Origin: Alphaproteobacteria bacterium
GTDB lineage: Bacteria; Pseudomonadota; Alphaproteobacteria; Rickettsiales; UBA3002
Length of the DNA stretch: 64,000 nt
Direction: 5' to 3'
NCBI GenBank assembly: GCA_031402515.1
Contig: JANNSK010000097.1
Location: forward strand, 7,429-71,428
Part shown: one piece after another, positions 10,189 to 59,115 of the stretch
Layout: the number at the start of each line of letters is the position of its first letter
Numbering within the stretch: the stretch's first letter is position 1
Made by a program: the position numbers and the translations under genes
The notes under the pieces: model-generated
Database searches by the model: none
What the model was told of the DNA's origin: nothing
The model's input: only the letters and a program-made list of their open reading frames with translations

Positions 10189-11181
10189 ATGAAACGCATT
10201 CTCGTCACCGGCGGCGCCGGCTTCATCGGTTCGAATATCGCAGGATCGCTCGCCCGCGGCGGCGCATACCGCATTACCGTGGCCGATGAATTCTCCTCAA
10301 GCGAGAAATGGCGCAACCTTGCCAAACACCCGATTTACGAAATCATATCGCCTGTCGACATATTTCACTGGCTCGAAGGCAATAAGGGCGACCTCGAGGC
10401 GATTATCCATATGGGGGCGACCTCATCGACCACGGAAAAGAACGTTGATCTCATCCTCAAAAATAATTTCTCGCTGTCGCGCGTGCTGTGGAACTGGGCG
10501 GTGATTAACAAAAGACGGCTGATTTATGCCTCTTCCGCTGCTACGTATGGCGACGGCTCGGTTGGATTCAAGGACGACCTTTCGCTCGACTATCAGCGCA
10601 CGCTGCACCCGCTCAACGCCTATGGCTGGAGCAAGCATCTGTTCGACCAGTTTGTCGCCATCGCTGCCGCCGGTGGTGATAAAATGCCAGAGCAATGGGT
10701 AGGGCTCAAATTCTTCAACGTCTACGGGCCGAACGAATATCACAAGGATCACCAGCGCTCCGTCGTCTGCCAGAATTATGCCTACGCGCAGCATGGCCGT
10801 CCGGTGCATCTGTTCAAATCGCTCAATCCGAAATACAAAGATGGCGGACAGTTGCGCGACTTTATCTATGTAAAGGATTGCGTGAAAGTGGTGAACTGGC
10901 TGCTCGCCAACCCGAAGGTGAACGGGCTGTACAATCTGGGTACCGGCAAGGCGCGCAGTTTTGAGGACCTCGCCAAGGCGCTGTTTGCTGCGCTTGGCAA
11001 ACCGCTCGCCATTACCTACGGCGACATGCCCGAAGAGTTACGCGCCAAATACCAATATTTTACCGAGGCTGAAATGGAGCGGTTAAAGGCAGCAGGATAC
11101 ACCGAGCCCTTTACCTCGCTCGAAGACGGCGTGAAAGATTACGTGCAGAACTATCTGGCGAAAGATGATCAGTATTTTTAG
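10189..11181 (+). CDS. hldD: ADP-L-glycero-D-manno-heptose 6-epimerase
   Basis: ILVTGGAGFIGSN, YASSAATYG, LNAYGWSK, FFNVYGPNEYHK, and a C-terminus (YQYFTEAEMERLKAAGY) matching the HldD pattern. Confidence 0.85.
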   Translation: MKRILVTGGAGFIGSNIAGSLARGGAYRITVADEFSSSEKWRNLAKHPIYEIISPVDIFHWLEGNKGDLEAIIHMGATSSTTEKNVDLILKNNFSLSRVLWNWAVINKRRLIYASSAATYGDGSVGFKDDLSLDYQRTLHPLNAYGWSKHLFDQFVAIAAAGGDKMPEQWVGLKFFNVYGPNEYHKDHQRSVVCQNYAYAQHGRPVHLFKSLNPKYKDGGQLRDFIYVKDCVKVVNWLLANPKVNGLYNLGTGKARSFEDLAKALFAALGKPLAITYGDMPEELRAKYQYFTEAEMERLKAAGYTEPFTSLEDGVKDYVQNYLAKDDQYF

Positions 11182-11185
11182 GAAA

Positions 11186-11265
11186 GTTGTTGGTTTTTGG
11201 TTGTTGGTTATTAGAATCAACGAAGTGGCCGTTTGCCAACAACCAACAACCAACAACTAACAACC
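11186..11265. repeat. inverted heptamer-array hairpin, unit GTTGTTG
   Basis: gttgttggtttttggttgttggttattag ... ccaacaaccaacaaccaacaactaacaacc. It ends at the lgt ATG. Confidence 0.9.
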
Positions 11266-14131: not shown

Positions 14132-14359
14132 CAGAGTCTGAGAGTCGAGTGAAGAATGCCCTCACCCGAAAATCGTGAAGGACGATTTTCGACCTCTCCC
14201 AAGGGAGAGGTAGGCAAGCCGCTCGCTCCTGTTCTTTCTTCCAATCCGCGCCAGCGGATACCCCTCTCCCTTGGGAGAGGTCAAAATCCACTTCTTGGTG
14301 GATTTTGGGTGAGGGCATGCTGGCAGGAATTTTCACTCGACTCTCGACTCTCGATTCTG
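14132..14359. repeat. inverted heptamer-array hairpin, unit GAGAGTC, with a ~160-bp GC-rich element nested in the loop
   Basis: Arms cagagtctgagagtcgagtgaagaat (14132-14157) and attttcactcgactctcgactctcgattctg (14329-14359). Confidence 0.85.
14158..14317. repeat. GC-rich MITE-like element, family A variant
   Basis: Terminal inverted repeats gccctcacccgaaaatc / gattttgggtgagggc. Internal hairpins cctctcccaagggagagg and cccctctcccttgggagagg. Confidence 0.8.
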
Positions 14360-15987: not shown

Positions 15988-16078
15988 ATTCTCGTGCTTG
16001 TCACGAGAATCCAGAGATCCTCGCGACGAGCGCGAGGATACTAAAGCTATTTATGAAAGTGATCATAAATAGCTTTAG
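15988..16078. repeat. three consecutive perfect hairpins at the uvrC 3' end
   Basis: attctcgtg/cacgagaat (15988-16010), atcctcgcg/cgcgaggat (16017-16039), and ctaaagctatttatga/tcataaatagctttag (16041-16078). The last one spans the uvrC stop. Confidence 0.8.
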
Positions 16079-18877: not shown

Positions 18878-18897
18878 TTTTCGTTTATAACGAATTG

Positions 18898-20568
18898 ATG
18901 CACGTCACGCCACTACCAGATGTTGTCATCCTGCTCGCCGCTGCGGTGGTCATCGTCAGCGCCTTCCGTGCCATGGGTTTGAGCCCGGTGCTCGGCTACC
19001 TCGTGGCGGGCGCGCTTATCGGCCCCACCGGCATCGGCTGGATTTCCGACCTCGATACGACCTCCTCGATTGCCGAGCTCGGCATCGTGTTCCTGATGTT
19101 CATGATCGGGCTCGACCTCTCATGGGACCGCTTGAAGTCGATGCGGTTTCAGGTTTTCGGCGTGGGCTCGGCGCAGCTTTTCCTCACCTCGCTGGTGCTG
19201 CTGCTCGCCGCGCTGGCCATGGGCGTCAATTTCACGGATGCATTGATTATCAGCGGCGCCTTGAGCCTTTCCTCCACCGCACTGGTGCTCGAACTGCTGC
19301 GCGGCCACAAGGAGCTTGCCACGCAAACCGGACGGCTATCGCTTGCCATCCTCATCCTGCAGGATCTCGCCGCACTTCCATTGCTCGTGCTTATTACCGT
19401 GCTCGGCAAGGGCGAAGGGTCATTGTGGGAAGCGATGGTTAATGCCGGGATAAATGCACTGGCTGCACTGGTGTTGATCGCCATTGCCGGGCGTCTGCTA
19501 CTGCGCCCGTTATTTCGTATGATTGCCCGTTTCGATATTCACGAACTCTTCGTGGCCACTGTATTGCTGGTGGTATTAGGCATTGCCTGGCTGACCGAAT
19601 CGGCCGGACTGTCGATGGCGATGGGCGCCTTCCTCGCCGGATTGTTCATCGCCGAGACCGAGTTCCAACAACAAATCGAGCTCGATGTGCGCCCCTACAA
19701 ACGCCTGCTCATGGGATTGTTTTTCATGACGGTTGGCATGCGCATGGATCCCGCCTTCATCGTGGACAATCTAACGGAAATGCTATTCTGGGCCGCCGGG
19801 TTGATCGTAATAAAGGCCGGCCTGCTTTACGTTGTGCTCAAAGCTTTCAAATATACGCGGCGCACCTCCGCCCATACGGCGTTGCTGCTCGCCCAGGGCG
19901 GCGAGTTCGGCTTTATTATGTTTGGATTGGCGGCGACCTTGGGCGTGCTCGAAGGCGAAGTGGTACAAAAACTCCTCATCGTCATCACCCTCACCATGGC
20001 GGCCACCCCGCTGCTCGATATGATGGGTTCGCAATTGGAGCGGCGCTGGTGGCGGACGGTGAAACGGAGAAAGCCCGAAGCCATTGCTGAAGAAACGCAG
20101 GATATTTCCGGTCACATTATTATCGCCGGTTACGGGCGCATGGGAAAAATGATCGCGAACCATCTGGCCGAGGAGCGCATCCCCTTCCTCGCCCTTGATT
20201 CGGCGCCGAAGGAAATCTCCGCCGGGCGCAAGGCACACCATCCGGTGTATTTCGGTGATGCCGCGCGGCCCGATGTGCTCGAAGCGCTGGGCATTTCCCG
20301 CGCCATCGCGCTGGTCATCACGCTGCATGACCCCGACGCGGCGGAGAAGCTGGCAGGCCTCATGCGCGACCGCTATCCGGATCTGCCCATCATTGCCCGC
20401 ACCAGCGATGCCAAACACGCCCATCGGCTGGAGGCGCGTGGCGTCAGCGCCGTGCCCGAGCTGCAAGTGGCTGGCATGCGCATGCTTTCCAGCCTGTTTT
20501 CTATCCTCGGGCGCCCGGAGGAAGATATTCACCGGGTCATGGAGCAGGTGCGAAGGGCGGCGGGCTAA
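18898..20568 (+). CDS. CPA2-family cation:proton antiporter with C-terminal TrkA-N (KefB/KefC-like)
   Basis: Multi-TM Na/H-exchanger region followed by IIIAGYGRMG (Rossmann, TrkA-N). Confidence 0.85.
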   Translation: MHVTPLPDVVILLAAAVVIVSAFRAMGLSPVLGYLVAGALIGPTGIGWISDLDTTSSIAELGIVFLMFMIGLDLSWDRLKSMRFQVFGVGSAQLFLTSLVLLLAALAMGVNFTDALIISGALSLSSTALVLELLRGHKELATQTGRLSLAILILQDLAALPLLVLITVLGKGEGSLWEAMVNAGINALAALVLIAIAGRLLLRPLFRMIARFDIHELFVATVLLVVLGIAWLTESAGLSMAMGAFLAGLFIAETEFQQQIELDVRPYKRLLMGLFFMTVGMRMDPAFIVDNLTEMLFWAAGLIVIKAGLLYVVLKAFKYTRRTSAHTALLLAQGGEFGFIMFGLAATLGVLEGEVVQKLLIVITLTMAATPLLDMMGSQLERRWWRTVKRRKPEAIAEETQDISGHIIIAGYGRMGKMIANHLAEERIPFLALDSAPKEISAGRKAHHPVYFGDAARPDVLEALGISRAIALVITLHDPDAAEKLAGLMRDRYPDLPIIARTSDAKHAHRLEARGVSAVPELQVAGMRMLSSLFSILGRPEEDIHRVMEQVRRAAG

Positions 20569-20582
20569 AGTAAGTTTGGCGC

Positions 20583-20722
20583 GGCGGTGAGGTTCCTCCC
20601 CCCTCTAGGGGGGAGGTTAGGAGGAGGGCGTTTTCCGCTTACTCCGAATCCGAGTTTTATGGAGAAGCTGCCGCCCTCACCCCACCCTCCCCCTCAAGGG
20701 GGAGGGAGCCATAGACCGTGCC
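20583..20722. repeat. GC-rich MITE-like element, family A (inverted relative to 12065-12198)
   Basis: cctcccccctctaggggggaggttaggagg ... gccgccctcaccccaccctccccctcaagggggaggg ... gaccgtgcc. Confidence 0.85.
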
Positions 20723-20771: not shown

Positions 20772-20797
20772 CACTCGACTCTCGACTCTCGACTCTG
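20772..20797. repeat. solo heptamer array (GACTCTC x3; complement of the GAGAGTC unit), no partner arm
   Basis: cactcgactctcgactctcgactctg, 15 nt upstream of the prs ATG and about 50 nt downstream of a GC-rich element. Confidence 0.8.
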
Positions 20798-20811: not shown

Positions 20812-21747
20812 ATGAAACTCATCGCCGGGAACAGTAACCAGCCGTTAGCGAAAGCGATGGCGGATTATCTGAAGCTGAAGCTGACCGACGCTTCCATCCG
20901 CCGGTTTTCCGATAATGAGATTTTCGTCGAGATACAGGAAAACGTGCGCGGTGAGGATGTATTCGTCATCCAGTCGACGAGCTTTCCCACCAACGACCAT
21001 TTGATGGAATTAATGATCATGCTCGATGCGTTGCGTAGGGCTTCCGCCAGCCGGGTGACGGCGGTGATTCCCTATTTCGGCTATGCGCGTCAGGACAGAA
21101 AGCCCGGTCCGCGCACGCCGATTTCGGCCAAGCTTGTCGCCAACCTCATCACCGAAGCCGGTGCCGACCGCGTGCTCACCGTCGATTTACACGCCGGTCA
21201 GATACAAGGTTTCTTCGACATACCGCTCGACCATCTCTATGCGCGGCCGGTGATCGTCGACGACATCAAGGAACATTTCAAGGACTTGGGCAACCTCATG
21301 ATTGTCTCGCCCGATACGGGCGGCGTGGTGCGCGCCCGCTCGCTCGCCGGCAAGCTCGATGTTGATCTGGCTATCGTCGATAAGCGGCGCGAGAAGGACA
21401 ACCAGTCGGAAGTGATGAACATCATCGGCGAGGTGAAGGGCAGGGACTGTATCCTGTTCGACGATATCGTCGATACGGCAGGCACGCTTTGCAACGCCGC
21501 CAAGGCGATCATGGACGAGGGGGCAAAATCCGTATCGGCCTACGTCACCCACGGCGTGCTTTCGGGACCGGCGCTGGCGCGGGTGGAAAAATCCGTACTG
21601 AAATCCCTCGTCGTTACCGACTCGATCATGGCCACGGAAGCCGCCAAGAAATGTGGCAACTTACGCATCATTTCCATCGCCCCGCTGCTTGCCGAAGCGG
21701 TCAATCGGATTGCTGAGGAAAGCTCGGTTTCTAGCTTATTTGATTAG
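20812..21747 (+). CDS. prs: ribose-phosphate pyrophosphokinase
   Basis: [14 protein letters not shown]..., [19 protein letters not shown]. The ORF-track start at 20587 runs through a repeat element. Confidence 0.95.
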
Positions 21748-21815
21748 GGATTGGGGATTGGGGATTAGGGATTAGGGGAAATTCCCTTAAAACCCAATCC
21801 CTAATCCCCCATCCC
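21745..21815. repeat. inverted heptamer-array hairpin, unit GGGATTR
   Basis: tagggattggggattggggattagggattagggg-aaatt-cccttaaaacccaatccctaatcccccatccc. It starts on the prs stop codon. Confidence 0.9.
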
Positions 21816-21900
21816 TTGAGCATTGACAGGCCCTCACCCCGTCGCTATAGATACGCGCCCTAAAACAACGGCAAAGCAAGCAATCCTTAAGGAGAAGCCC

Positions 21901-22665
21901 ATGAAAGCGGCAGTGGAAATGAACGCGGAAGAGCGCAAAAGCATCGGTAAAGGTGCCGCACGCGCTGCGCGCCGTGATGGCAAAGTGCCAGTTGAGCTTT
22001 ATGCCAACGGCAAAGGCAACGTGTCGCTCAATGTCGAGGCGCGCCAGTTTGCCAACGAATATTTCAAGGGCGGCTTCATGAATAAAGTCGTCGCGCTCAA
22101 GGCAGGCGGCAAAGATTATTTTGCCATCCCGCGCGCCATCCAGCTCAATCCCGTATCGGACAAAATCGAACATGCTGATTTCATCCAGGTCGATGAAAAA
22201 TCGGTGGTGAAAGTCTTCATCCCGCTGCATTTCAAAAACACCGATAAATCGCCCGGCATCAAGCGCGGCGGCGTACTCAACGTGGTCCGTCACTCGATCG
22301 AGCTTCTCTGCCCGGTAAAATCCATCCCCGCCTTCCTTGATGTCGATGTTGGCGCGCTCGAAATCGGCAACTCCATCCATATCAGCAAATTGAAACTCCC
22401 CGAAGGTGTGACCACCGTCATTAAAGGCCGTGACTTCACCATCGCTTCTGTCGCCGGTCGCCAGAAGGAGGAAGAAGAAGTTCCAGTCGCAGCTGCTGCT
22501 GCCGTACCGGGTGCCGATTCCGTCGTTGGTGCCGCTGGCGCTGCGCCGGGCGCTCCGGGCGCTGCTGCCCCCGCTGCTGGCGCCGCGCCGGCTGCAGGTG
22601 GCAAAGGCGCTGCTGCTTCCGCTGCTGGCGGCAAGGCTCCCGCTGCTCCTGCTGGCAAAAAATAA
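21901..22665 (+). CDS. rplY: 50S ribosomal protein L25/general stress protein Ctc
   Basis: L25/Ctc N-terminal and beta-barrel domains with an Ala/Pro/Gly-rich tail. AAGGAG ribosome-binding site before the ATG at 21901. Confidence 0.9.
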   Translation: MKAAVEMNAEERKSIGKGAARAARRDGKVPVELYANGKGNVSLNVEARQFANEYFKGGFMNKVVALKAGGKDYFAIPRAIQLNPVSDKIEHADFIQVDEKSVVKVFIPLHFKNTDKSPGIKRGGVLNVVRHSIELLCPVKSIPAFLDVDVGALEIGNSIHISKLKLPEGVTTVIKGRDFTIASVAGRQKEEEEVPVAAAAAVPGADSVVGAAGAAPGAPGAAAPAAGAAPAAGGKGAAASAAGGKAPAAPAGKK

Positions 22666-22683
22666 ATCTTCCGAGGGTGACCT

Positions 22684-23274
22684 ATGTGGCTCGTGGTAGG
22701 CCTTGGCAATCCCGGGGCCGATTATCGGTCCACGCGCCATAATATTGGCTTCATGGCAATTGACGCGCTGGCGGGTGCTGCAAAGTTCTCAAAAAAATTT
22801 CAGGGCGAAATCGCGCAGGTGGATATCGGCGAGGAGAAGGTCCTTTTACTCAAGCCGCAAACCTTCATGAACAATTCTGGAAGAAGCGTGCAAGCGGCGA
22901 TGGCATTTTACAAATTGCCACTCGAGAATCTCATCGTCCTGCATGATGAGCTCGACTTGCCACTCTTCAAACTGCGCATCAAGCAGGGCGGCGGCAATAA
23001 CGGGCATAACGGCATCAAGGATATCGACGCGAATATTGGCCCCGATTACTGGCGTATCCGCCTCGGCATCGGCCACCCGGGTGACAAGGACGCCGTGCAT
23101 GGTCACGTGCTAAGCAGTTTCGGGAAGGACGAGCGCGAGGGCGCCGATACATTGCTCAATGCGCTGGCCAAGCATTTCCCCCTTTTCTGGCAGCACTCGC
23201 CGGAAGCGTTGATGAGCAAGGTAACGGACACACTCAACCCCCGCGAAAAAAAACCTCAACCGAAGGAAGCATAA
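22684..23274 (+). CDS. pth: peptidyl-tRNA hydrolase
   Basis: VGLGNPG..Y..TRHN.GF, FMN.SG, and GGG..GHNG motifs. Confidence 0.95.
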
Positions 23275-24375: not shown

Positions 24376-24376
24376 A

Positions 24377-24468
24377 AGGTTCCGGGTGCCAGGTTTCAGG
24401 TTTCAGGAATTTTTCTTTCTGCTATACTCCTCTGGAACCTGAAACCCGGAACCCGGAACCTGAAACCT
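24377..24468. repeat. inverted heptamer-array hairpin, unit GGTTYCR
   Basis: aggttccgggtgccaggtttcaggtttcagg ... ctggaacctgaaacccggaacccggaacctgaaacct. It runs from the ychF stop to the next start. Confidence 0.9.
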
Positions 24469-24472
24469 ATCT

Positions 24473-24996: not shown

Positions 24997-25025
24997 AAAA
25001 AAAAGACCGGGCACAAGGCCCGGCC
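24997..25025 (-). terminator. Rho-independent terminator, minus-strand specific
   Basis: On the minus strand: GGCCGGGC-cttgt-GCCCGGTC followed by T8. On the plus strand there is no T-run. It lies about 440 nt downstream of the LysR stop. Confidence 0.7.
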
Positions 25026-25140
25026 AGATTTAAACAGGGAGGCAAGCGCGCCTTGGTCGTTGCACCTTAGCGCGCCTTACGTTTCGCGCGAAACCGCGCC
25101 AAACGAGCCGCGACCATAGAGATGCTGCTTTGCAACACAA

Positions 25141-25277: not shown

Positions 25278-25441
25278 ACTCACCCTCACCCAGCAAAGCC
25301 TAAGCGCTTAAAGCGCTAAGGCTTTGCGTCCCTCTCCCTCAATGAGGGAGAGGGAGTAGGGGAGATCGCGCCTCATAGTGTTAGGCAGGCACGGTGGTGA
25401 ACTCCCTCTCCCCCATCGGGGGAGAGGGTGGGGTGAGGGGG
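25278..25441. repeat. GC-rich MITE-like element, family A variant
   Basis: Ends actcaccctcaccc / gggtggggtgaggggg. Internal hairpins ccctctccctcaatgagggagaggg and ccctctcccccatcgggggagaggg. It contains a ggcacggtggtga block. Confidence 0.75.
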
Positions 25442-25463: not shown

Positions 25464-26354
25464 CTAAAAATTCGATTCAGCGATCTTCTGCGTGATGAAA
25501 TTCCGAAATACCGCGATGCGTTTGGAGCTTTTGAGCTCCAGCGGATAAATATAATACGCCTCCGTCACCGGCCCGGAAACATCCGGCAGCACGCGGCTGA
25601 CATGGCGCGTGCGGTGCATCAGGTAATCGGGCAGGCTGGCAATCCCCATCCCCTGCTTTACCGCCGTGCGCATCGCCAGCACCGAATTGGCGCGAAAGAA
25701 GGGCGTGAGTTCAAGTCCGCGCGTATGGGCCATTGCAAACAACCAATTGATTTCCGGTGAGGCCAGCGTGCCTGTCGCATCATAGCCAAGCAGCCGATGA
25801 TTCTTGAGGTCGTTGAAGTTTTTCGGAATACCGTGCAGCCGCAAATAATCGTTCGAGGCATATAGCGAGTTGCGCAGTGTCATGATTGATTTCTGTACGA
25901 GGTCGGGATTCTTCGCCGGATAAAAGCGAATCGCCGCATCCGCCTGGCGCAGGGTGAGGTCGAGTTCGCGGTCCTCGCAAATCATCGTCACCTGAATGTC
26001 GGGATAAAGATCGGTGAATTCTTTCATCTGCTGCGCCAGCCAGATATTGCCAAAGGTCGCCGGCACCGCCACCTTGAACGGGCCTTTGGGCCTGCTTGAG
26101 GATTCCGACAGTGTATTTTCCGCCGCCTGCAGCTTGACCACCATATCGGCAACGGTGCGGAATAAAATCTCGCCCTGCTCAGTAAGCATGAGTCCCCGCG
26201 CATGGCGGTGAAAAAGCGGAATGCCGAGCTTTTCCTCGAGCGCTGAAATCTGGCGTGACACTGCCGACTGGCTCAAATTCAGCGCTTCGCCTGCCTTGGT
26301 CAGGCTTTTTGAAAGCGCGACCGTATAAAAAACCCTGAGCTTGTCCCAATCCAT
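25464..26354 (-). CDS. LysR-family transcriptional regulator
   Basis: N-terminal HTH (LR.F..VA...S.T.AGE.L.LSQSAVSRQI..LE..LG..LF.R) followed by a LysR substrate-binding domain. Confidence 0.9.
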   Translation of the reverse strand: MDWDKLRVFYTVALSKSLTKAGEALNLSQSAVSRQISALEEKLGIPLFHRHARGLMLTEQGEILFRTVADMVVKLQAAENTLSESSSRPKGPFKVAVPATFGNIWLAQQMKEFTDLYPDIQVTMICEDRELDLTLRQADAAIRFYPAKNPDLVQKSIMTLRNSLYASNDYLRLHGIPKNFNDLKNHRLLGYDATGTLASPEINWLFAMAHTRGLELTPFFRANSVLAMRTAVKQGMGIASLPDYLMHRTRHVSRVLPDVSGPVTEAYYIYPLELKSSKRIAVFRNFITQKIAESNF

Positions 26355-28564: not shown

Positions 28565-29506
28565 TTATCCCTGATGTTCTAGGAACTTCTGCGCCTCGAG
28601 GGCGGCCATGCAACCGGTGCCGGCGGCGGTAACGGCCTGGCGGAAGATTTTATCCTGCACATCGCCCGCAGCGAATACGCCCGCGATATTGGTCTTGGTC
28701 GAGCCGGGGGTGGTTTTGAGGTAGCGATCCGCATCCATGTCGAGCTGGCCAGTGAAAAGTTGCGTGTTGGGCTCATGGCCGATGGCGACGAAGGCGCCGT
28801 CCACTTTGAGTTCGCTGATCGCACCAGTTTTGACGTTCTTGAGTTTGAGTCCGGTGAGCGAAGGCGGGTTGTCCGTGCCTAAGAATTCTTCAACCGTAGA
28901 GTCCCAGATCACCTTCACGTTGGGCGTTTTGAACAGGCGCTCCTGGCCGATTTTCTCGGCACGCAGCGAATCCCGCCGATGCACCAGCGTCACCGACTTG
29001 GCGATTTTGGCAAGGTAGAGCGCTTCTTCGACGGCAGAGTTTCCACCGCCCAGCACGGCGACATCTTTGCCTTTGAAGAAGAACCCGTCGCAGGTGGCGC
29101 AGGCCGATACGCCAAAATTCTGGAATTTCTTTTCCGATTCAAGCCCCAGCCAGCGTGCCGAGGCGCCGGTGGCGATGATGAGTGTATCGCCCACATACGT
29201 ATCGCCCGAATCACCGATGGCGACGAAGGGGCGCTTGGAGAAATCCACCGACACGATCGTATCGGAGAAAATCTGCGTGCCGACATGGGCGGCCTGCGCC
29301 TCCATTTGCTCCATCAACCACGGGCCTTTGATGGCGTCGGCGAAGCCGGGATAATTCTCGACATCGGAGGTAATCGTCATTTGTCCCCCTGGCTGCATGC
29401 CGCGTACCATGATGGGCTTAAGCGCGGCGCGTGACGCGTAAATTGCCGCCGTGCAGCCCGCCGCGCCGGAACCGATAATCAAAACTGGAGTTCTGTGTTC
29501 TGCCAT
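28565..29506 (-). CDS. trxB: thioredoxin-disulfide reductase
   Basis: VLIIGSGAAG, redox centre CATCDG, GGGNSAVEEA, and FAAGDV. Confidence 0.95.
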   Translation of the reverse strand: MAEHRTPVLIIGSGAAGCTAAIYASRAALKPIMVRGMQPGGQMTITSDVENYPGFADAIKGPWLMEQMEAQAAHVGTQIFSDTIVSVDFSKRPFVAIGDSGDTYVGDTLIIATGASARWLGLESEKKFQNFGVSACATCDGFFFKGKDVAVLGGGNSAVEEALYLAKIAKSVTLVHRRDSLRAEKIGQERLFKTPNVKVIWDSTVEEFLGTDNPPSLTGLKLKNVKTGAISELKVDGAFVAIGHEPNTQLFTGQLDMDADRYLKTTPGSTKTNIAGVFAAGDVQDKIFRQAVTAAGTGCMAALEAQKFLEHQG

Positions 29507-29509
29507 AGG

Positions 29510-29571
29510 AAGCCTACAGCCAACAGCTTACAGCCTACAGCTAAGAGCTGTCGGCTGTCGGCTGTAGGCTT
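29510..29571. repeat. inverted heptamer-array hairpin, unit GCCTACA/GCTGTAG
   Basis: aagcctacagccaacagcttacagcctacagct-aag-agctgtcggctgtcggctgtaggctt. It occupies essentially the entire ahpC-trxB spacer. Confidence 0.9.
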
Positions 29572-30174
29572 TTACAGAGCCTTTGCGTTTTCTTTGAGGT
29601 AGGAAGCCACGCCATCAGCGGTGGCCTTCATACCTTTTTCGCCTTTTTTCCAGTTAGCCGGGCAGACTTCGCCATGCTCTTCGTGGAAGTTCAGCGCTTC
29701 GATCATGCGCAGCGTTTCATCGACATTGCGGCCGAGCGGCAGGTCGTTGACGACCTGGTGGCGCACGATGCCTTTCTTGTCGATCATGAAAGTGCCGCGG
29801 AAGGCAACCGCGTCATTCACCAGCACGTCATACGAGCGGGCGATGGATTTGGTGAGGTCGGCCACCAGCGGGAAGCGGATATTGCCGATACCGCCTTTAT
29901 CAACCGGCGTATTTTTCCACGCATAATGGGTGTATTGCGAATCGACCGAGACACCGATCAGTTCGGCGCCCAGTTTTTTGAATGCATCGACCCGGTTATC
30001 GAAGGCGATGATTTCCGACGGGCAGACGAAGGTGAAGTCGAGCGGGTAGAAAAATACGATGCCCACTTTGCCCTTGATAAAGGATTTCAGGTTGAAATCC
30101 GCCTTGATGGAATTGTCGCCCATCACCGCATTGGCGGTGAAATCTGGGGCTTCTTTGCCGACGAGTACGCTCAT
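29572..30174 (-). CDS. ahpC: typical 2-Cys peroxiredoxin (AhpC/Prx1 family)
   Basis: [15 protein letters not shown] peroxidatic-Cys motif and a resolving Cys in HGEVCPANW. Confidence 0.9.
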
Positions 30175-31840: not shown

Positions 31841-31997
31841 AGGATTAAGGCTCTTAAGATGAGTGAGGAGCAAAATGCCCGCCTACCATAGCCCGCCTGT
31901 CAGAAACTTCAAGTGCCGGGAGCACTCCTCAAAATTCATGAGAATGTCACATTCGGCCATGGCTGTTTCGGCTATACTTATCGTGAAAGAGGCACTT

Positions 31998-32606
31998 ATG
32001 GCCGATAGATACGACCTACCAAGAATTCCGGTAACCGACAAGCCGACCATCTTCAATCGTGAAGCGGGCGGGTGGGGCCTGCTTGGCAGCATGATCGGCA
32101 GTATGATACCTTTTGGTAGCCTGATTGGTGCCGCTGTGGGGATTGCGTATGGCGGCAGCAAGGGCATGCGGCGCATGGAGCGTGAGCTGGTCGAAGGCCG
32201 CGCTGTCAAAGACCCGACTTATTGGAACAGTGGCGTCTGGAGCGGCTGGCTCATTGGCATCCTGCTGGTAATGCCGGTGCTTCTCCTTAGCTTTGTTACC
32301 GGCGGTCTGTTGATTGGCGTTGCCCTTGCGGCCCCGCTCATCGGCGCCGTCATCGGCAGCAATATCCGCTATAACAGCATGAAACAGGATATAGGCATGG
32401 CTGTCGCCCTGCGCAATCAGGAACATAACCTCGCCAAAGAAGCCGCGCTAGAACATGAAATGGGCCGCGCACCCACCGTCTACAAAGATTCCGTGAGTCG
32501 TGAAGAGGCGGCAGCCCTCGAGCAGAAATCCTCAAAACCGCGCAACCATCTCGACGAAATGCTCACCCACCGCACCCAGCTTTCCGAGCTTGAAGCCAAG
32601 CGCTAG
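31998..32606 (+). CDS. hypothetical membrane protein with glycine-zipper helices and a charged C-terminal tail
   Basis: GAAAGAGG ribosome-binding site before the ATG at 31998. Gly-zipper [27 protein letters not shown]. The 3' end overlaps the carB stop by 4 nt (convergent). Confidence 0.5.
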
Positions 32607-35968: not shown

Positions 35969-37158
35969 CAGGCCACCCTCTTCTTGTGCGCGTCGATCAT
36001 TTCGACGAAGCGCTTGAACATATAGTGCGAATCATGCGGGCCGGGGGAGGCTTCGGGGTGGCCTTGCACCGAAAACACCGGCGCGGATTTCATTTCGATG
36101 CCTTGGATGGTGCCATCGAACAGCGAACGGTGGGTGACTTCGATTTCTGCAGGCAATCCCGAATCGCTAATGGCGAAGCCATGATTCTGCGAGGTGATAG
36201 ACACCTTACCCGTACGCAAATCCTTCACCGGATGGTTAGCGCCGCGATGGCCCTGTTTCATTTTCTCGGTTTTGGCATTGAGTGCGATGCCCAGCATCTG
36301 GTGGCCGAGGCATATGCCGAATAGCGGGATGCCCGAGGCGATTAGTTTTTTAATGACAGGCACTGCGTATGTACCCGTCGCCGCCGGATCGCCGGGCCCG
36401 TTGGATAAAAATATGCCGTCGGGCTTCAGCGCTAACACATCCTCGGCGCTCGTAGTGGCAGGCACCACGGTGATGCGGCAACCGGCTGAGGCAATGCAGC
36501 GCAGGATGTTCAGCTTCACGCCGTAATCGATGGCTACCACATGGTAAGAGGTGGCAGGTGGCAGGTGGCAGGTGGCAAGCGAGTCATAGCCTTTGCCAAG
36601 CTTCCACTTGGTCTGATCCCAGATGTGGGATTTCTTGGTGGTGACCGTGGCCGCCAATTCCAGTCCAGCCATATTGGGCGCCGCGGCCAGCCGCTGCTTC
36701 GCCTGTTCGCTTGCCACCTGCCACTTGCCACCTGCCACATAAGCAATCGCCGCATTCTGCGCACCCTTGGTGCGGATATGTCGGGTCAGTGCGCGCGTAT
36801 CGACACCGGTAATGCCGGTGAGTTTGTTTTTCTTCAGCCATGCATCGAGATGCAAAGTAGAGCGGAAATTCGATGGGTCGGTAATCGCCTCGCGAAGGAC
36901 AAGACCCGCTACGACGGGTGTCGCGGATTCGATATCCTCGTCGTTGGTGCCTACATTGCCAATATGGGGGAAGGTGAAGGTGATAATCTGGCCGCAATAG
37001 GAGGGATCAGTGAGCACTTCCTGGTAGCCGGTCATCGCGGTATTAAAACAGATTTCACCAGAGGTGGCACCTTCATGCCCGATGCCATATCCGGAAAACA
37101 CCGCCCCGTCCGCGAGTACCAGCGCGGCGTTCGGGGGTTTTACCAGCGACACGACCAT
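35968..37158 (-). CDS. carA: carbamoyl-phosphate synthase small subunit (glutaminase)
   Basis: CarA N-terminal domain followed by a class-I GATase (GICLGHQ, HRG.NHPV, QGHPE). The stop overlaps the carB start. Confidence 0.95.
36548..36738. repeat. inverted heptamer arrays (unit GTGGCAG) inside carA, arms 128 nt apart
   Basis: gaggtggcaggtggcaggtggcaggtggcaagc (36548-36580) and gcttgccacctgccacttgccacctgccac (36709-36738). Confidence 0.9.
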
Positions 37159-37286: not shown

Positions 37287-38072
37287 TTAAAACGCCTTCC
37301 TGAAATACAGCGCGCACTGGCTGGTCTGGTCGGTCGTGCGGTAGCTGGCGGCGAGATCATCATCGGCGGAGCCCGCATCATCAGCCGAGGCGCAGGCATC
37401 GTCCCAGAAACGAGCGATGACGGAACCCGAGGCGGGCTTGCCGTCATCCAGTTTGGAGTCGAGATCGTATGCATCCTGTGGCGAGATGGCGGCGGCATGG
37501 GTGAGGTCGTTCGTCGTTTTATGGCCGATGACAAGATAATTGCCGTAATCCAGTGCATAGGCTGACGCATCGCCCGCGAAATCCGGCGCCAGCCAACTCA
37601 CTGACCAGCCAGCCCCGCTGAGTTTGGAATCCGGCACGTTGGTGCCAATCATGCTGTCGTAGGCACCGCCTGCGCCCGCAAGGCCCGTGAAATAGCCGCC
37701 GATAAAATCGGCCAAACCCAGCTGTTTCCAGAATTGGTAGAGTTCCGATGTGTCGCCTGCGGCGCCCACGGTCATCATCACGTCGTTGTTGCCGTTGCAA
37801 GTGCCGGGGCTGCCGTTGGTGATAGCAGCGTCGGCGCAGGTGGCGTTATCGTCGCCCCACACCGTCGTCGCATTTTTCATATCGCCGGGGAGTGCAGAGT
37901 ATTTGGCACGGAAGTTCTGAACGGCGGCGATAGTGCGTTGATGCTCGGTCGTAATGGCGCGCAACTCGCCGGAACGGATGAGCGCTGCGCCGCCCACTAT
38001 CCCGCCCACGATGAGGCCGATGATGACGAGCACAATGGCGAGTTCGACAAGGGTGAATGCTAAGCGAGCCAT
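37287..38072 (-). CDS. type IV pilin-like protein (prepilin-type N-terminal cleavage/methylation domain), paralogue 1
   Basis: MARLA|FTLVELAIVLVIIGLIVGG and a C-terminal Cys pair. It is a paralogue of 59116-59874 (shared LPGDMKNAT..WG, NVP...GAG, D.KLD.G.P.SG). Confidence 0.75.
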   Translation of the reverse strand: MARLAFTLVELAIVLVIIGLIVGGIVGGAALIRSGELRAITTEHQRTIAAVQNFRAKYSALPGDMKNATTVWGDDNATCADAAITNGSPGTCNGNNDVMMTVGAAGDTSELYQFWKQLGLADFIGGYFTGLAGAGGAYDSMIGTNVPDSKLSGAGWSVSWLAPDFAGDASAYALDYGNYLVIGHKTTNDLTHAAAISPQDAYDLDSKLDDGKPASGSVIARFWDDACASADDAGSADDDLAASYRTTDQTSQCALYFRKAF

Positions 38073-38073
38073 A

Positions 38074-38153
38074 AGCCCACAGCCTACAGCCCACAGCACT
38101 TCCGAGCAAGCGTCTCGGCCAAGCTAAAAGCTGTAGGCTGTTAGCTGTTGGCT
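38074..38153. repeat. inverted heptamer-array hairpin, unit GCCYACA/GCTGTWG
   Basis: agcccacagcctacagcccacagc ... aagctgtaggctgttagctgttggct. It lies between the phaZ stop and the pilin-like start. Confidence 0.9.
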
Positions 38154-44414: not shown

Positions 44415-44436
44415 GGTAACACCCGCAGCAAGCCAT

Positions 44437-44518
44437 GAGCCGACAGCCTGTAGCCGACAGCTTTAGAAACAATGCAGATGGTTAAAAGCTCTAGGCTGTA
44501 GGCTGTAAGCTGTAGGCC
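44437..44518. repeat. inverted heptamer-array hairpin, unit GCCGACA/GCTGTAG
   Basis: gagccgacagcctgtagccgacagcttt ... aaagctctaggctgtaggctgtaagctgtaggcc. It lies between tadB and tadC inside the operon. Confidence 0.9.
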
Positions 44519-44520
44519 CA

Positions 44521-51419: not shown

Positions 51420-51593
51420 TACGTCACCCTATGCTCAACATCAGCCCGCAGACAGGTACACTTGCAGCCCATCCGCGCGACACCTGTTTACGAATTAGCA
51501 AGCGGCGTCAAACATCGTCAAGCGAATACGACCATACACAGGGCTGTTGATAAGCTTCTTGGTAACACTGAACGAATTTTGTCGCAGATGGGA

Positions 51594-51653
51594 GTGTGGC
51601 AGGTGACAAGTGACAGGTGGCATGTGGCCCCTATCGCCTGCCACTTGCCACCA
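51594..51653. repeat. inverted heptamer-array hairpin, unit GTGRCAR (asymmetric arms)
   Basis: gtgtggcaggtgacaagtgacaggtggcatgtggc ... gcctgccacttgccacc, in the divergent cpaB/guaA spacer. Confidence 0.8.
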
Positions 51654-53893: not shown

Positions 53894-55258
53894 GTGAATC
53901 AGGAATCAGGAATCAGGACTCAGGAATTAAGGACGTTTCGTTTCTTGATTCCTTTCATCTTTTCATCCTGCCTCCTCCTTTCTGCCTGTGACCTGCCCGA
54001 CTGGATTGGTGGACCCAAAAAAGAAATCAAACGCGCGCCGGGCGAGCGTATCGATATCGTCGCTCCTTCCTCCGGCCTTAAGGCGGACCCGGCGGCGCAA
54101 AGCACCGAAATCGAATTTCCCGACCAGCAAGGGCTCACCGACTGGACAAGCCGCAACAATGCGCTCGGTGGTGCCCATATCGGCCTGACCGGGATTGAGC
54201 ATACGCAGTCCGAGCGCATCGGTGACGGCAACGCATTTTCGCATCCGCACGCGCCGCAGCCTATCGTCACCGGTGGGCTGGTCGTGGCGATGGATGCGGC
54301 GGGATTTGTCTCGGCGCATGATGCGGCGGACATCGATAATGTACGCTGGGTAAGTGCGGCGGGCGAAGAAGAGGATGGGGACGATGTGCTGGGCGGCGGT
54401 CTTGCTACCGACGGGCAGGTTATCTTCGCTACTACCGGCTTCGGTCGTCTGTTCGCCCTCGATCTTAAAACCGGCAAGAAACTATGGAAAACAAGCGTCG
54501 GCGCTCCGGTGCGCGGCGCCCCTGCGGTAAGTGCTGGCACCGTCGTTGTCCTCACCGCCGATGGCCAGACGCTGGGTTTCGATGCGGCAACCGGTGCGCC
54601 GCGCTGGAGCCATCGCGGCATCCGCGAATCGGCGGGTTACTTCTCCTCCACCGCGCCGGTTATCAGCGAAGACGGTATCGTCATGGCCGCCTATGCTTCG
54701 GGCGAAATCTTCGCCATGCGTGCCGAATCGGGCGACGTGTTGTGGTCCGACACGTTGGTTGCCGGTGATAAAACCAGCGCTTCGGCTGTATTCAGCGGGA
54801 TTGATGCCGACCCTATCGTACAGGATGGGGCAGTAGTCGTGGTCTCCGCTGCGGGCGCCATGCAGGCCTCATCCCTGCCCAATGGCCGGCCCCTCTGGCA
54901 GCAGCGCATCGGTGCCCATGTCACACCATGGCCTGCGGGCAATGCCGTATTTATGTTGACCACAGGGCATGACCTTGCTGCCCTCCTTAAAGCCGATGGG
55001 TCGGTGCGCTGGGCCGTATCGCTCGCTGAGAAAGACGATCGCGGCAAGGATATCACCCCGCCATTATACGGCCCCATCCTTGCCGGCAACGCCATCATGG
55101 TAGTAAAGGGAGATGGCACACTCGTCACCTACCGCCCCCAGGACGGCAAACATTTACGCGACTATGAGCTCGATAGCGGCATCGTTTCCGACCCCGTCAT
55201 CGCTGGCGGGGCGCTGTATCTGGTCGATAAAAGCGCAAGGCTGCATAAGTATTATTAG
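53894..55258 (+). CDS. bamB: outer membrane protein assembly factor BamB (PQQ-like beta-propeller lipoprotein)
   Basis: Lipobox LLSAC and repeated PQQ-like blades. GTG start; the exact start is uncertain. Confidence 0.8.
   Translation: MNQESGIRTQELRTFRFLIPFIFSSCLLLSACDLPDWIGGPKKEIKRAPGERIDIVAPSSGLKADPAAQSTEIEFPDQQGLTDWTSRNNALGGAHIGLTGIEHTQSERIGDGNAFSHPHAPQPIVTGGLVVAMDAAGFVSAHDAADIDNVRWVSAAGEEEDGDDVLGGGLATDGQVIFATTGFGRLFALDLKTGKKLWKTSVGAPVRGAPAVSAGTVVVLTADGQTLGFDAATGAPRWSHRGIRESAGYFSSTAPVISEDGIVMAAYASGEIFAMRAESGDVLWSDTLVAGDKTSASAVFSGIDADPIVQDGAVVVVSAAGAMQASSLPNGRPLWQQRIGAHVTPWPAGNAVFMLTTGHDLAALLKADGSVRWAVSLAEKDDRGKDITPPLYGPILAGNAIMVVKGDGTLVTYRPQDGKHLRDYELDSGIVSDPVIAGGALYLVDKSARLHKYY
53896..53932. 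repeat. heptamer array GAATCAG x4 at the bamB 5' end, with a degenerate partner downstream
   Basis: gaatcaggaatcaggaatcaggactcaggaattaagg. The possible eroded complement is cttgattcctttcatcttttcatcctg, about 15 nt downstream. Confidence 0.7.
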
Positions 55259-55259
55259 A

Positions 55260-55332
55260 ATGTGACAAGTGACAGGTGGCAGGTGACATGTTACGCCTCG
55301 GCCCTTGTCACCTGTCACCTGTCACATGTCAC
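55260..55332. repeat. inverted heptamer-array hairpin, unit GTGACAG
   Basis: atgtgacaagtgacaggtggcaggtgacatg ... cttgtcacctgtcacctgtcacatgtcac. It runs from the bamB stop to 5 nt before the der ATG. Confidence 0.9.
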
Positions 55333-55336
55333 TCTT

Positions 55337-58146: not shown

Positions 58147-58788
58147 TTACCCTCCGATTTCCACCATCACCTCGTTGCGGCGGAAGAAAGGTAATGTCCA
58201 TGGCGGGTTGTAAAAGGCCAGCGTCGGGCTGCCGCGCGGGCGCAGTTTATTGACCTTCACATACTCCGCCAACGCTTCCATATTTTTGGCAATACGCGCT
58301 TCATTTGCGGTACCGGAGAAGCGAATCACGGCAAATCGATGCGCGGGAATTGTCTTCAGCTTCACCGCTGTATTGTTCGGCTTCGGCAGGGTTTTCAGGG
58401 TGTAGCTTGAAGGCATCACGAAGCGCACCTTCCACTCGCCCTCAGCGCTTGCTTGTTGGATAACCGGTGCCGTCATCGCGATTTTCTCGGACTGCTGGGT
58501 AACGGGTGCGGTCATTGCCACTTTTGCTGACGCGGTATTGTCGCCGAAAATGTAACCGGCAATGGTGCGGAACCCTTCCTTGATGGCAATCTCGCGCTCA
58601 CCTTTCACGGTTGTCTCAGCGATAATCGCGGGCTCATAGCGGCGCAACTCGATATTGCCCTCCGCCTTCTCGACGGTGTATTTCGCCTGCTCCACGCGGC
58701 TGGCAAGTGGCCCCCAGGCGATGATGGCAATCAGCGCGACGGCAACAACGATCCAGATCATTTTTTTGTTTCCTTTGGCAGTCTTCAT
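58147..58788 (-). CDS. SOUL heme-binding family protein
   Basis: N-terminal TM or signal segment followed by SOUL/HBP-like sequence (YEPAIIAET.V.G....A...GFR.IAGYIFG.N). The ATG at 58788 is used because the longer ORF would overlap the tRNA. Confidence 0.7.
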   Translation of the reverse strand: MKTAKGNKKMIWIVVAVALIAIIAWGPLASRVEQAKYTVEKAEGNIELRRYEPAIIAETTVKGEREIAIKEGFRTIAGYIFGDNTASAKVAMTAPVTQQSEKIAMTAPVIQQASAEGEWKVRFVMPSSYTLKTLPKPNNTAVKLKTIPAHRFAVIRFSGTANEARIAKNMEALAEYVKVNKLRPRGSPTLAFYNPPWTLPFFRRNEVMVEIGG

Positions 58789-58911
58789 GTGGGTCTCCAT
58801 CCTAAGTTTTACCAGTCCCCCTACGCTAAAGCTTCGGGCGACACTCCTTCGCTCTAACGGTTTCAGGTGTCTGACTGGCGTCAGCCACCCGAAGCCCGTA
58901 AGGGCGAAGGG

Positions 58912-58988
58912 TGGCGCACCCGATTGGAGTCGAACCAACAACCTTTGCCTTCGGAGGGCAACACTCTATCCAGTTGAGCTACGGGTGC
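58912..58988 (-). tRNA. tRNA-Arg (anticodon CCG)
   Basis: 77 nt folded by hand: acceptor GCACCCG/CGGGTGC, D-arm GCTC..GAGT, anticodon stem TTGCC/GGCAA with loop CTCCGAA, T-arm GTTGG-TTCGACT-CCAAT, discriminator G, encoded CCA. Confidence 0.9.
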
Positions 58989-59038: not shown

Positions 59039-59115
59039 ACCAGCCAACAGCCAACAGCTTATAGCCGGGCTGAGCCACTTGCACGGCGGAGCTATAGGCT
59101 GTAGGCTCAAGGCCC
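59039..59115. repeat. inverted heptamer-array hairpin, unit GCCAACA/GCTGTAG
   Basis: accagccaacagccaacagcttatagcc ... ggagctataggctgtaggctcaaggcc. It ends at the ATG of pilin-like paralogue 2. Confidence 0.85.

Follow-up and report, generated by a model that had tools for sequence, protein, structure and literature searches.

Inverted heptanucleotide repeats at the ahpC-trxB junction and other gene junctions of an uncultured alphaproteobacterium

The hairpin between ahpC and trxB

The 64,000-nucleotide stretch analysed in this work (the window; contig JANNSK010000097.1, positions 7,429 to 71,428, from an Alphaproteobacteria bacterium placed in the Rickettsiales) carries the peroxiredoxin gene ahpC and the thioredoxin-disulfide reductase gene trxB one after the other on the minus strand, and the spacer between them forms a single hairpin with arms made of 7-nt repeats. 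The RNA of this spacer reads UAA-AAGCCUACAGCC...GGCUGUAGGCUU-CCU-AUG, such that the hairpin starts directly after the ahpC UAA and ends 3 nt before the trxB AUG. Read on the sense strand, a TCTTA loop joins the 5' arm, AAGCCTAC-AGCCGAC-AGCCGAC-AGC, to the 3' arm, (GCTGTAG/GCTGTAA/GCTGTTG/GCTGTAG)GCTT, after which come CCT and the ATG. The minimum free energy (MFE) of the RNA is -44.2 kcal/mol (z = -8.2), a stability reached by none of 200 dinucleotide shuffles; when the spacer is folded as DNA, z = -7.0. This focal hairpin is a member of a clade-specific population of palindromes with inverted heptanucleotide arms, and about ten such very stable stem-loops lie at gene junctions of the window (Table 1).

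The two genes of the pair differ in their expression signals. The ahpC gene has a strong Shine-Dalgarno (SD) sequence, TAAGGAG, and a promoter-like site at 30246-30219, whereas trxB has no SD sequence (dG -2.8), and a scan of the ahpC-trxB spacer for promoter-like sites detected none.

Syntenic contigs of relatives were compared, grouped by the protein that anchors them: HldD with 80-86% identity in L081-L083, TrxB with 88-93% in L084-L087, and Der with 71-74% in L088-L090. In all 13 loci compared in which ahpC lies directly upstream of trxB (TrxB identity 69-100%), the spacer is more stable than its shuffled versions, with z from -2.4 to -9.8. A hairpin fills the spacer in all close relatives, although its sequence is not constant: the units are AGCCNAC in the window, L084 and L087, and GGGATTA/CCAATCC, running up to the ATG, in L086, whereas L085 has a G/C-rich hairpin that is not heptameric. 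In several distant relatives (L091, L134 and L127) the spacer consists of a hairpin followed by a U-tract, and there the element looks, from its sequence, like a terminator or attenuator. A metagenome scan with TrxB returned relatives of at most 79% identity in which period 7 was not enriched, and these served as the outgroup for the spacer. Because the spacer is structured in all 13 loci, the element is old and predates the heptamers; it looks like an old intercistronic hairpin that was rebuilt from AGCCNAC heptamers in the clade of the window. Its likeliest role would be to set unequal expression of the two genes, by attenuation and/or by protection of the 3' end of the ahpC message.

Heptamer arrays in the window and in its relatives

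Every hairpin arm, as established by Tandem Repeats Finder and direct reading, is a tandem array of period 7 with at least three copies of its unit, and at least 8 unit families occur within the 64 kb. Strict arrays in the window comprise 14 of period 7 and 3 of period 6, and none of periods 5, 8, 9, 10 or 11. Period-7 arrays reach 2.2 per 10 kb in the window and 1.4 in close relatives (23 arrays in 167 kb), compared with 0.06 in 0.86 Mb around more distant trxB genes and 0.08 in 1.4 Mb of unrelated loci. The distant loci together hold 16 period-7 arrays in 2.3 Mb. In the window and its close relatives such arrays are 25-40 times denser than in more distant relatives, over-representation in the source genome being judged here from 64 kb. 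Since the density is high only in the window and its close relatives, the phenomenon is clade-specific; the closest named relatives are metagenome-assembled genomes labelled 'Rickettsiales / Alphaproteobacteria bacterium'. A scan of a genome collection with the KefC-like protein, which found only distant relatives (best 61%) and no heptamers, served as background. The window, L081 and L084 have the KefC-like gene itself (18895-20568), which L082/L086 and L083 lack between the SDR gene and prs. An assembly artefact was ruled out by orthologous hairpins in independent assemblies (NCBI, ENA, JGI and Logan).

At the hairpins cited in the original prediction, which had drawn attention to seven genes preceded by such structures and had noted neither their 7-nt repeats nor the published repeat class to which they belong, the stems have MFEs of -34 to -51 kcal/mol, and the main stems span about 18-28 bp with few mismatches. 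The sense strand folds more stably in five hairpins and the antisense strand in five, and counts of G-U pairs are unbiased too; as both strands fold equally well, there is no sign of selection specific to an RNA strand. The placement is not even along the DNA. Six of the nine intergenic hairpins sit in spacers whose remainder outside the hairpin is 15 nt or less, and spacers this tight account for 1.3% of the intergenic target (binomial p = 4e-10, with the repeats removed before sites were located). Generation at junctions, extension up to coding limits and selective retention are possible reasons for this preference. Arrays are found away from starts as well, as direct repeats, in divergent promoter regions, after genes and in coding loops (carA, bamB and mltA).

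At these sites, copy number changes in place, unit families replace one another, arrays concentrate at junctions, and some settle in coding loops that tolerate them. The divergent BMFP-hldD spacer has TTGCTAG here and TTGCCAG/CTGGCAA in L082 and L081, that is, a one-base change present in both arms. The unit CTCGACT upstream of prs is found in 3.3 copies in the window and in one copy at the same place in L083, and GTGACAG before der has four copies plus the inverted arm in the window, a degenerate version in L088, and one copy followed by an SD sequence in L090. Expansion in place is favoured because single-copy units occur at orthologous sites. Downstream of ychF, the window has a full hairpin, L084 a weak one, and L086 only a direct (AAACCTG)4 array with no hairpin, such that the ATG-proximal array is kept in the three genomes and the complementary arm is not. 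The hldD-lgt spacer measures 84 nt in the window versus 6, 36 and 1 nt in L081, L082 and L083, and the hairpin-free L081 has TAAGG 4 nt ahead of the lgt ATG. The carA and carB genes overlap by 1 nt in the window, whereas in L086 a hairpin of about 87 nt lies there, its first arm formed by the 3' end of carA. The hairpin before the pilin-like gene at 38072 is absent from L084 and L085.

Turnover is also seen inside genes. In the window, the two carA arrays flank 135 nt of conserved coding sequence, and relatives carry other heptamer families at the same positions of the two CarA loops (L084 1877-1907 and 2023-2054; L086 3098-3128 and 3255-3285; L085 3837-3861), which makes four genomes in all. 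An in-frame GGGGATT/CCAATCC hairpin (L088 10490-10621; L089 10487-10605) lengthens the linker that joins the two GTPase domains of Der by about 27 residues (GNGEWGSGIGE...QSPIPDPQSP), and this insert is not found in the Der of the window. The carB gene of L086 holds three hairpins or arrays of this kind (4947-5007, 5505-5535 and 6648-6721).

Such changes of copy number among close relatives would be expected of contingency loci, in which the number of heptamers switches neighbouring genes by phase variation. Three of the sites flank pilus or pilin-like genes, and heptameric repeats drive phase variation of the HMW adhesins of H. influenzae (PMC12721329). However, the neighbours are mostly housekeeping genes (der, lgt, trxB, hldD, prs and carA) and the arrays, of 3-5 units, are short and in many cases imperfect, so that we regard this explanation as extremely unlikely.

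The arms show a consistent polarity. In the window and L081-L089, all palindromes with CAG/CTG units are of the form (N4CAG)n-loop-(CTGN4)n (13 loci, 5 families), and in the other unit families the first arm reads N4TAG or N4TGG; the opposite polarity was found in two distant relatives, L091 and L097. Where an array of such units abuts a true start codon, its sense strand is CTG-type in nine loci versus none, whereas direct arrays in coding sense are CAG-type. The pattern was seen post hoc and partly by manual reading, among unit families that are not independent. Being strand-symmetric in the hairpins, the polarity may reflect either the way in which the palindromes are generated or selection on the ATG-proximal arm. 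Two further candidates were rejected: a G-quadruplex explanation (Rehm 2015) would apply at most to the GGGATTG family, as most units are not G-rich, and a single DNA-binding protein reading the heptads in the manner of Streptomyces antibiotic regulatory proteins is implausible with at least 8 unrelated units.

Table 1. Heptamer hairpins and arrays of the window, with the genes of the focal pair.
Feature	Units read	Unit family	Coordinates	Strand	Position
Focal hairpin	See text	AGCCNAC/GCTGTNG	29507-29571	minus	Exact 65-nt spacer from ahpC stop (29572-29574) to trxB ATG (29506)
trxB			28565-29506	minus	Thioredoxin-disulfide reductase; TIGR01292, residues 8-309 = profile 3-300
ahpC			29572-30174	minus	Peroxiredoxin
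mltA hairpin	GTGACA/TGTCACC	GTGACAG/TGTCACC	2842-2915	plus	After tim44-like stop; only plausible mltA start, ATG 2861, inside
hldD hairpin	(TTGCTAG)n/(CTAGCAA)n	TTGCTAG/CTAGCAA	10087-10188		Whole divergent spacer: BMFP-family gene (ATG 10086, minus) and hldD (ATG 10189)
lgt hairpin	(GTTGTTG)n/(CCAACAA)n	GTTGTTG/CCAACAA	11185-11265	plus	hldD stop (11179-11181) to lgt ATG 11266
Direct array before ilvE	(CTCGACT)3.3	CTCGACT, direct only	14336-14358	plus	40 nt upstream of ilvE, whose SD is GAGGAA
Direct array before prs	(CTCGACT)3.3	CTCGACT, direct only	20774-20796	plus	15 nt upstream of prs ATG 20812; prs without SD
prs hairpin	(GGGATTG/GGGATTA)n/(CCAATCC)n	GGGATTG/CCAATCC	21742-21815	plus	After prs; begins on prs stop codon
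173-aa gene hairpin	(AGGTTTC/GGGTTCC)n/(CTGAAAC/CCGGAAC)n	AGGTTTC/CTGAAAC	24376-24472	plus	ychF stop to ATG 24473; array ends 24468
carA complementary arrays	(AGGTGGC)4 and (TGCCACC)4	GTGACAG/TGTCACC	36549-36577 and 36712-36738	minus	Inside carA coding sequence, translated as two variable loops
Pilin-like gene hairpin		AGCCNAC/GCTGTNG	38073-38151	minus	PHB-depolymerase gene stop to ATG 38072
tadB-tadC hairpin		AGCCNAC/GCTGTNG	44431-44519	minus	Between two T2SSF (tadB/tadC-like) genes; 3' foot 15-25 nt before ATG 44414
Direct degenerate array	(GCAGGTG/GTGACAG)6	GTGACAG/TGTCACC	51584-51628	plus	Divergent cpaB-guaA spacer, upstream of guaA
Direct array in bamB	(GAATCAG)4.6	GAATCAG, direct only	53896-53927	plus	Directly after bamB GTG start 53894, which has a strong SD
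der hairpin	(GTGACAG/GTGGCAG)n/(TGTCACC)n	GTGACAG/TGTCACC	55259-55336	plus	bamB stop (55256-55258) to der ATG 55337; stem ends 55332
Second pilin-like gene hairpin	AGCCAAC/GCTGTAG	AGCCNAC/GCTGTNG	59041-59115	plus	Divergent spacer: tRNA (58915-58988, minus) and ATG 59116

Some of the rows of Table 1 bear on the proteins or on the annotation around them. The bamB array encodes an N-terminal extension (NQESGIRTQE) that precedes the lipoprotein signal peptide. Upstream of the mltA lipobox (LLAGC), the only in-frame start candidates, ATG 2861 and GTG 2849, are within the hairpin or ahead of it, so that the heptamer arms encode part of the MltA signal peptide. Gene prediction is led astray by the hairpins, as at this uncertain mltA start, at GTG 55262, which would make Der 25 residues too long, and at the false open reading frame (ORF) 21787-22740 (minus), a shadow of rplY; the hairpins are likely to break assemblies as well. 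The gene downstream of ychF encodes a 173-aa protein that matched no family, and the label 'FKBP-like', given at first, has no support from Pfam or NCBIfam. Antisense-adjacent to the 3' end of this gene is a borderline Rfam match to the SorX small RNA (24999-25084, minus; 47.3 bits, gathering 46.6), with a canonical terminator at its end (25025-25005, then a T-run). Beside the second pilin-like gene, the tRNA extends into the 5' part of an ORF related to Sbt_1 transporters (58147-58988 region); alignment of this ORF with its L088 ortholog begins only at residue 69, and the gene may therefore be truncated.

Start codons at the feet of the hairpins

The original prediction held that hairpins fill stop-to-start spacers and leave the downstream gene without an SD sequence. 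For the genes that it cited, the ATG lies 0-5 nt past the array or the stem (for lgt and the 173-aa gene, strict MFE gives 7-11 nt), and the lack of an SD sequence was borne out in all seven. The description as stop-to-start spacers stands for the five co-directional cases, in which the upstream stop codon is 0-5 nt from the 5' foot of the hairpin, and does not apply to hldD and the pilin-like gene at 59116, which lie in divergent spacers with no upstream ORF and have the BMFP gene and a tRNA, respectively, on the opposite side. True starts located further downstream, with ordinary ribosome-binding sites, had been named as what would overturn the idea; this was excluded by profile coordinates and N-terminal motifs. 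NCBIfam profiles begin at about residues 1-5 of HldD, Lgt, TrxB and Der, alignments of orthologs begin at the same codons, and the pilin-like proteins open with a prepilin leader, M..AFTLVEL.

For a census of SD sequences, we took 52 genes with starts curated by hand, because calls from the conservation boundary misled at der and pilinA, where relatives carry similar hairpins. An SD sequence was scored as a duplex of -4.5 kcal/mol or lower with ACCUCCUUA within positions -20 to -1, with a canonical anti-SD assumed; mltA, which starts in its hairpin, and prs, which has a direct array 15 nt upstream, were left out. An SD sequence is present in 0 of 8 hairpin-abutted genes versus 22 of 44 others (Fisher p = 0.008). 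The contrast with hairpin-free genes drawn at first therefore holds for its examples (rplY TAAGGAG, ilvE GAGGAA and nrdA AAGGGG) and is overstated as a rule, the other 22 of the 44 being SD-less. Hairpin-free genes without an SD sequence include prs (also SD-less in three relatives), uvrC, guaA, kefC and the gene at 26354. The absence of SD sequences at the hairpins is thus partly geometric, since the 3' arm fills the SD position (-4 to -30), and partly a trait of the lineage, since half of the ordinary genes are SD-less too. Such frequent lack of SD sequences is usual in Alphaproteobacteria; in Caulobacter, 75% of genes have none and are translated equally well (PMC4117421).

The accessibility of the starts sets these genes further apart. 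The computed cost of opening positions -15 to +12 has a median of 19.7 kcal/mol for hairpin-abutted genes versus 9.6 kcal/mol for the others (p = 1e-4). With start regions so strongly occluded, de novo binding of the 30S subunit should be very inefficient.

The explanation that we prefer, and to which we give slightly better than even chances, is that the hairpins are palindromes of heptamers like the short tandemly repeated repetitive (STRR) sequences, of DNA-level origin, that at ahpC-trxB they rebuilt an old hairpin, and that the occluded starts are reached by coupled translation. Under this proposal, the repeats would originate and spread on the DNA by slippage-type amplification of heptamers together with inverted duplication or template switching, and selection would filter where they persist. 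The ancestral role of the ahpC-trxB hairpin would probably be attenuation of readthrough and/or protection of the ahpC 3' end, as in operons with selective stabilisation. In the readthrough mRNA, the trxB start would be buried at the foot of a stem of about -45 kcal/mol; a ribosome terminating on the upstream cistron would melt the base of the stem, and the downstream start would then be used by unfolding or by re-initiation coupling. Since the stop codon adjoins the 5' foot, the terminating ribosome would reach no further than the base of the stem (about 10-12 bp). We expect that trxB, lgt, der and the other co-directional genes are most likely translated only by such coupling. In the divergent spacers, the promoter would probably lie in the loop, so that each mRNA carries one arm only, as is suggested by a promoter-like site in the loop of the hldD hairpin (10151-10123) directed at the BMFP gene. 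The hairpins probably attenuate or stabilise transcripts as well.

Several points weigh against this explanation. Coupling, attenuation and promoter positions are deduced from geometry and energetics only, and the SD census covers 52 genes with hand-curated starts and an assumed canonical anti-SD. That junctions are strongly preferred, and that ahpC-trxB keeps a hairpin although its sequence is replaced, could equally mean a selected function, and the recurrence of unit families (AGCCNAC at 4 loci, GTGACAG at 4) could mean mobility instead of origin in place. We know of no lineage in which the mechanism that generates heptamers has been established. Moreover, structure right after a stop codon reportedly lowers the efficiency of coupling (Chemla et al., as cited in PMC12548453).

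The same geometry could be read as a dedicated module for translation initiation, in which the heptad array replaces the SD sequence, as a standby site or through contact with a factor or rRNA, and the hairpin regulates its use. Arrays lie 0-5 nt from true starts in 8 genes of the window and in several of the relatives, the essential genes der and lgt among those that depend on such starts; at the locus downstream of ychF it is the ATG-proximal array that three genomes conserve; and the CTG-type sense of the ATG-proximal arms resembles the forward TAACTGA repeats of the Beggiatoaceae discussed below. However, units differ fully among loci, so that no single binding partner is evident, and arrays also occur far from starts, after genes and in coding sequences. 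The polarity, strand-symmetric and noted post hoc in non-independent families, may come from repeat generation, and half of the hairpin-free genes do without an SD sequence. We consider this module unlikely. Of the structure-dependent initiation, coupling or translational brake suggested at the outset, the SD-less and occluded starts and a stop geometry that would suit coupling or a brake are supported, whereas a dedicated translation device is not supported: the same repeats form direct arrays and are found after genes, in divergent spacers and in coding sequence, the two strands fold equally, half of the ordinary genes are SD-less, and the ahpC-trxB hairpin predates the heptamers.

A discontinuous ribosome-binding site of the T4 gene 38/25 type, in which folding places an SD sequence from the 5' side of the hairpin next to the start, finds some support in the lgt hairpin, whose 5' foot carries an SD-like AGGA. 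The motif TAGGAAAG, a stop codon overlapping this AGGA, is found at the 5' foot in the window at 11179-11186 (lgt) and before trxB in L085 (9941-9948) and L086 (9931-9938), and the TAAGG before lgt in the hairpin-free L081 fits the same idea. Nevertheless, it cannot be a general rule, since no SD stands at the 5' foot of the trxB hairpin in the window and L084, nor at that of der, tadC or either pilin-like gene, and we hold it to be very unlikely.

Whether the hairpins are rho-independent terminators or attenuators, with the downstream genes on promoters of their own, was weighed from their 3' flanks. The prs hairpin is followed by a near-consensus rplY promoter (TTGACA-17-TATAGA, with TTGACA at 21823) ahead of the true rplY start at 21901 with its SD TAAGGAG, and the U-tracts at ahpC-trxB in L091, L134 and L127 point the same way. 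In the window, however, no U-tract follows any of the hairpins, as had been said of them from the beginning, and a terminator scan flagged none; the tails read CCTATG, TCTTATG and the like. In addition, the 0-5 nt between hairpin and ATG leave no room for a promoter and the ahpC-trxB spacer has none, promoters internal to the upstream genes not having been specifically examined. For the hairpins of the window, this explanation seems quite improbable to us.

RNase III unmasks an occluded ribosome-binding site in E. coli adhE and in T7 early mRNAs. By analogy, the hairpins may act as RNase III or exonuclease barriers, like repetitive extragenic palindromic (REP) elements or those of T7, which would uncouple the stabilities of the cistrons, with cleavage removing the 5' arm and unmasking the start. 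Their near-perfect stems of about 18-28 bp and -34 to -51 kcal/mol stand exactly between cistrons, and this length agrees with the two or so helical turns of double-stranded RNA needed by RNase III. A strong promoter and SD sequence for ahpC, with neither for trxB, would fit unequal stoichiometry, and the structured spacer is kept in all 13 loci; precedents exist of operon stoichiometry controlled by stem-loops through selective RNA processing and stabilisation (PMC4423207, PMC8219983). The heptad periodicity and the copies in coding sequences and divergent spacers are left unexplained, and the proposal is compatible with, and not exclusive of, coupled translation behind heptamer palindromes. 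As an account of its own, we judge it unlikely.

Comparison with known heptanucleotide repeats

The feature belongs to the heptanucleotide-repeat (STRR-like) class, here in an uncultured alphaproteobacterial clade; the class has already been published, and the present case differs from its published members in the alphaproteobacterial host, the many families that are not G-rich, the tight bridging of stop and start, the turnover of units and the copies in coding loops. Compared with repeats of other periods, the GGGAATC heptamers of Xanthomonas and GGGGA(T/C)T heptamers of Nostoc are strongly over-represented. Most of them separate ORFs of the same direction: the G-rich strand follows the stop codon within 50 bp or overlaps it, and the C-rich strand comes just ahead of the next ORF. 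Xanthomonas has 70-75 convergent pairs per genome, capable of forming stem-loops, at positions not conserved between species (PMC4692102). The paired convergent arrays of the window, ten hairpins plus the carA pair, are of the Xanthomonas type, and the prs hairpin and the trxB hairpin of L086 use nearly the unit of Nostoc (GGGATTG/GGGGATT). Unlike either, the window has at least 8 families, mostly not G-rich, hairpins reaching to 0-5 nt from a start, and copies in coding loops. Only the prs hairpin resembles a published unit (GGGGATT), and the other seven families of the window match none of GGGAATC, GGGGATT, TAACTGA and STRR1-3. Unit identity, however, marks named sub-families and not the heptanucleotide-repeat class itself.

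The STRR unit sequences of cyanobacteria are not shared with the families of the window, apart from the GGGGATT-like unit. In Calothrix and Nostoc, several STRR heptamer families per genome are described as intergenic, often within 30-100 nt of starts or overlapping them, with a suggested regulatory role (as cited in PMC4692102), and the recF and recO heptamers of Nostoc lie within 30 nt of start codons or overlap them and have modest effects on reporters (bioRxiv 10.1101/2022.06.06.494920). The window belongs to another phylum, and STRR sequences differ in being mostly direct arrays. Geobacter metallireducens has elements of four to five tandem heptanucleotides, between and within genes and in some cases paired and inverted, with fixed length and the consensus GGACCGG or MTYCTGA, which were read as regulator-binding sites or RNA elements (PMC2700814). 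The arrays of the window are likewise found both between and within genes, without such a fixed length and consensus.

What the original prediction noticed at the starts is known, without hairpins, from marine Beggiatoaceae, where TAACTGA arrays are most often 1 nt before the start codon, SD sequences are rare in spacers that contain the repeats and the neighbours include housekeeping genes; there is one dominant unit, nearly always direct, with one indirect repeat in 170 sets (PMC4679880). In the window, too, arrays abut starts, SD sequences are absent and the sense strand upstream of the ATG is CTG-type in most ATG-proximal arms, whereas the arrays are mostly inverted pairs that form hairpins of -34 to -51 kcal/mol and belong to many unit families. 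It is conceivable, though distinctly unlikely in our estimation, that heptad arrays are an SD-independent signal for initiation or coupling across phyla, with a trans-acting partner and the complementary arm as a switch. In that case, a protein or a ribosomal site would read phased CUG heptads, and the complementary arm would tie initiation to translation of the upstream gene.

As to elements of other kinds, the palindromes between co-transcribed genes recall REP elements, bacterial interspersed mosaic elements and stabiliser stem-loops, which offer a plausible analogy for high ahpC and low trxB expression. REP elements, however, have one genome-wide consensus and are mobilised by REP-associated tyrosine transposases, whereas the hairpins of the window have unrelated families and loops and heptad arms. 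No such (IS200/IS605-like) transposase is among the genes annotated in the 64-kb window, which is the extent covered. With respect to miniature inverted-repeat transposable elements, the four AGCCNAC hairpins share AGC-T(T/C)TTA at the junction of arm and loop, their loops being otherwise unrelated, and no target-site duplication is evident. Coupling by RNA unfolding is exemplified by genes VII/IX of phage f1, the coat and lysis genes of MS2, and rpmI-rplT (PMC12548453). As in these systems, the downstream starts of the window are, by computation, sequestered in a long hairpin, which a ribosome on the upstream gene might open, and the downstream genes would have no efficient initiation of their own. 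In classical coupling the upstream ORF enters the hairpin, whereas here the stop codon is usually at the 5' foot, with the exception of carA-carB in L086.

This clade offers a natural comparison, as the same junction may carry a full hairpin, a direct array, another family or nothing; copies within essential coding regions, and the SD-less starts of the essential genes der, lgt and trxB at the foot of a stem of about -45 kcal/mol, add to what can be compared. To our knowledge, heptanucleotide repeats have been catalogued for decades in cyanobacteria, Xanthomonas, Geobacter and giant sulfur bacteria without an established origin or function. If coupling is true, the hairpins would be a widespread and naturally evolved hard-wiring of translational coupling, and would illustrate how the architecture of operons can come to incorporate a repeat of selfish or mutational nature.

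Other structured or unassigned elements of the window are recorded here. An Rfam scan of the window gave four matches at the gathering threshold, none of them over the heptamer hairpins. Two inverted copies of whalefall-1 RNA lie in the 268-nt spacer before ilvE, at 14158-14213 (minus) and 14260-14316 (plus), with 41.8 and 39.1 bits (gathering 37), and palindromes of the type GGGAGAGG/CCTCTCCC, similar to these copies, are found at about 20590-20720 and 25329-25439. A perfect 16-bp palindrome, CTAAAGCTATTTATGA/TCATAAATAGCTTTAG, which is not heptameric, covers the uvrC stop codon (16041-16078). Finally, a 760-nt insert between greA and carB (31841-32602), by which the window differs from its relatives, contains an ORF (31863-32606) that matches no family.

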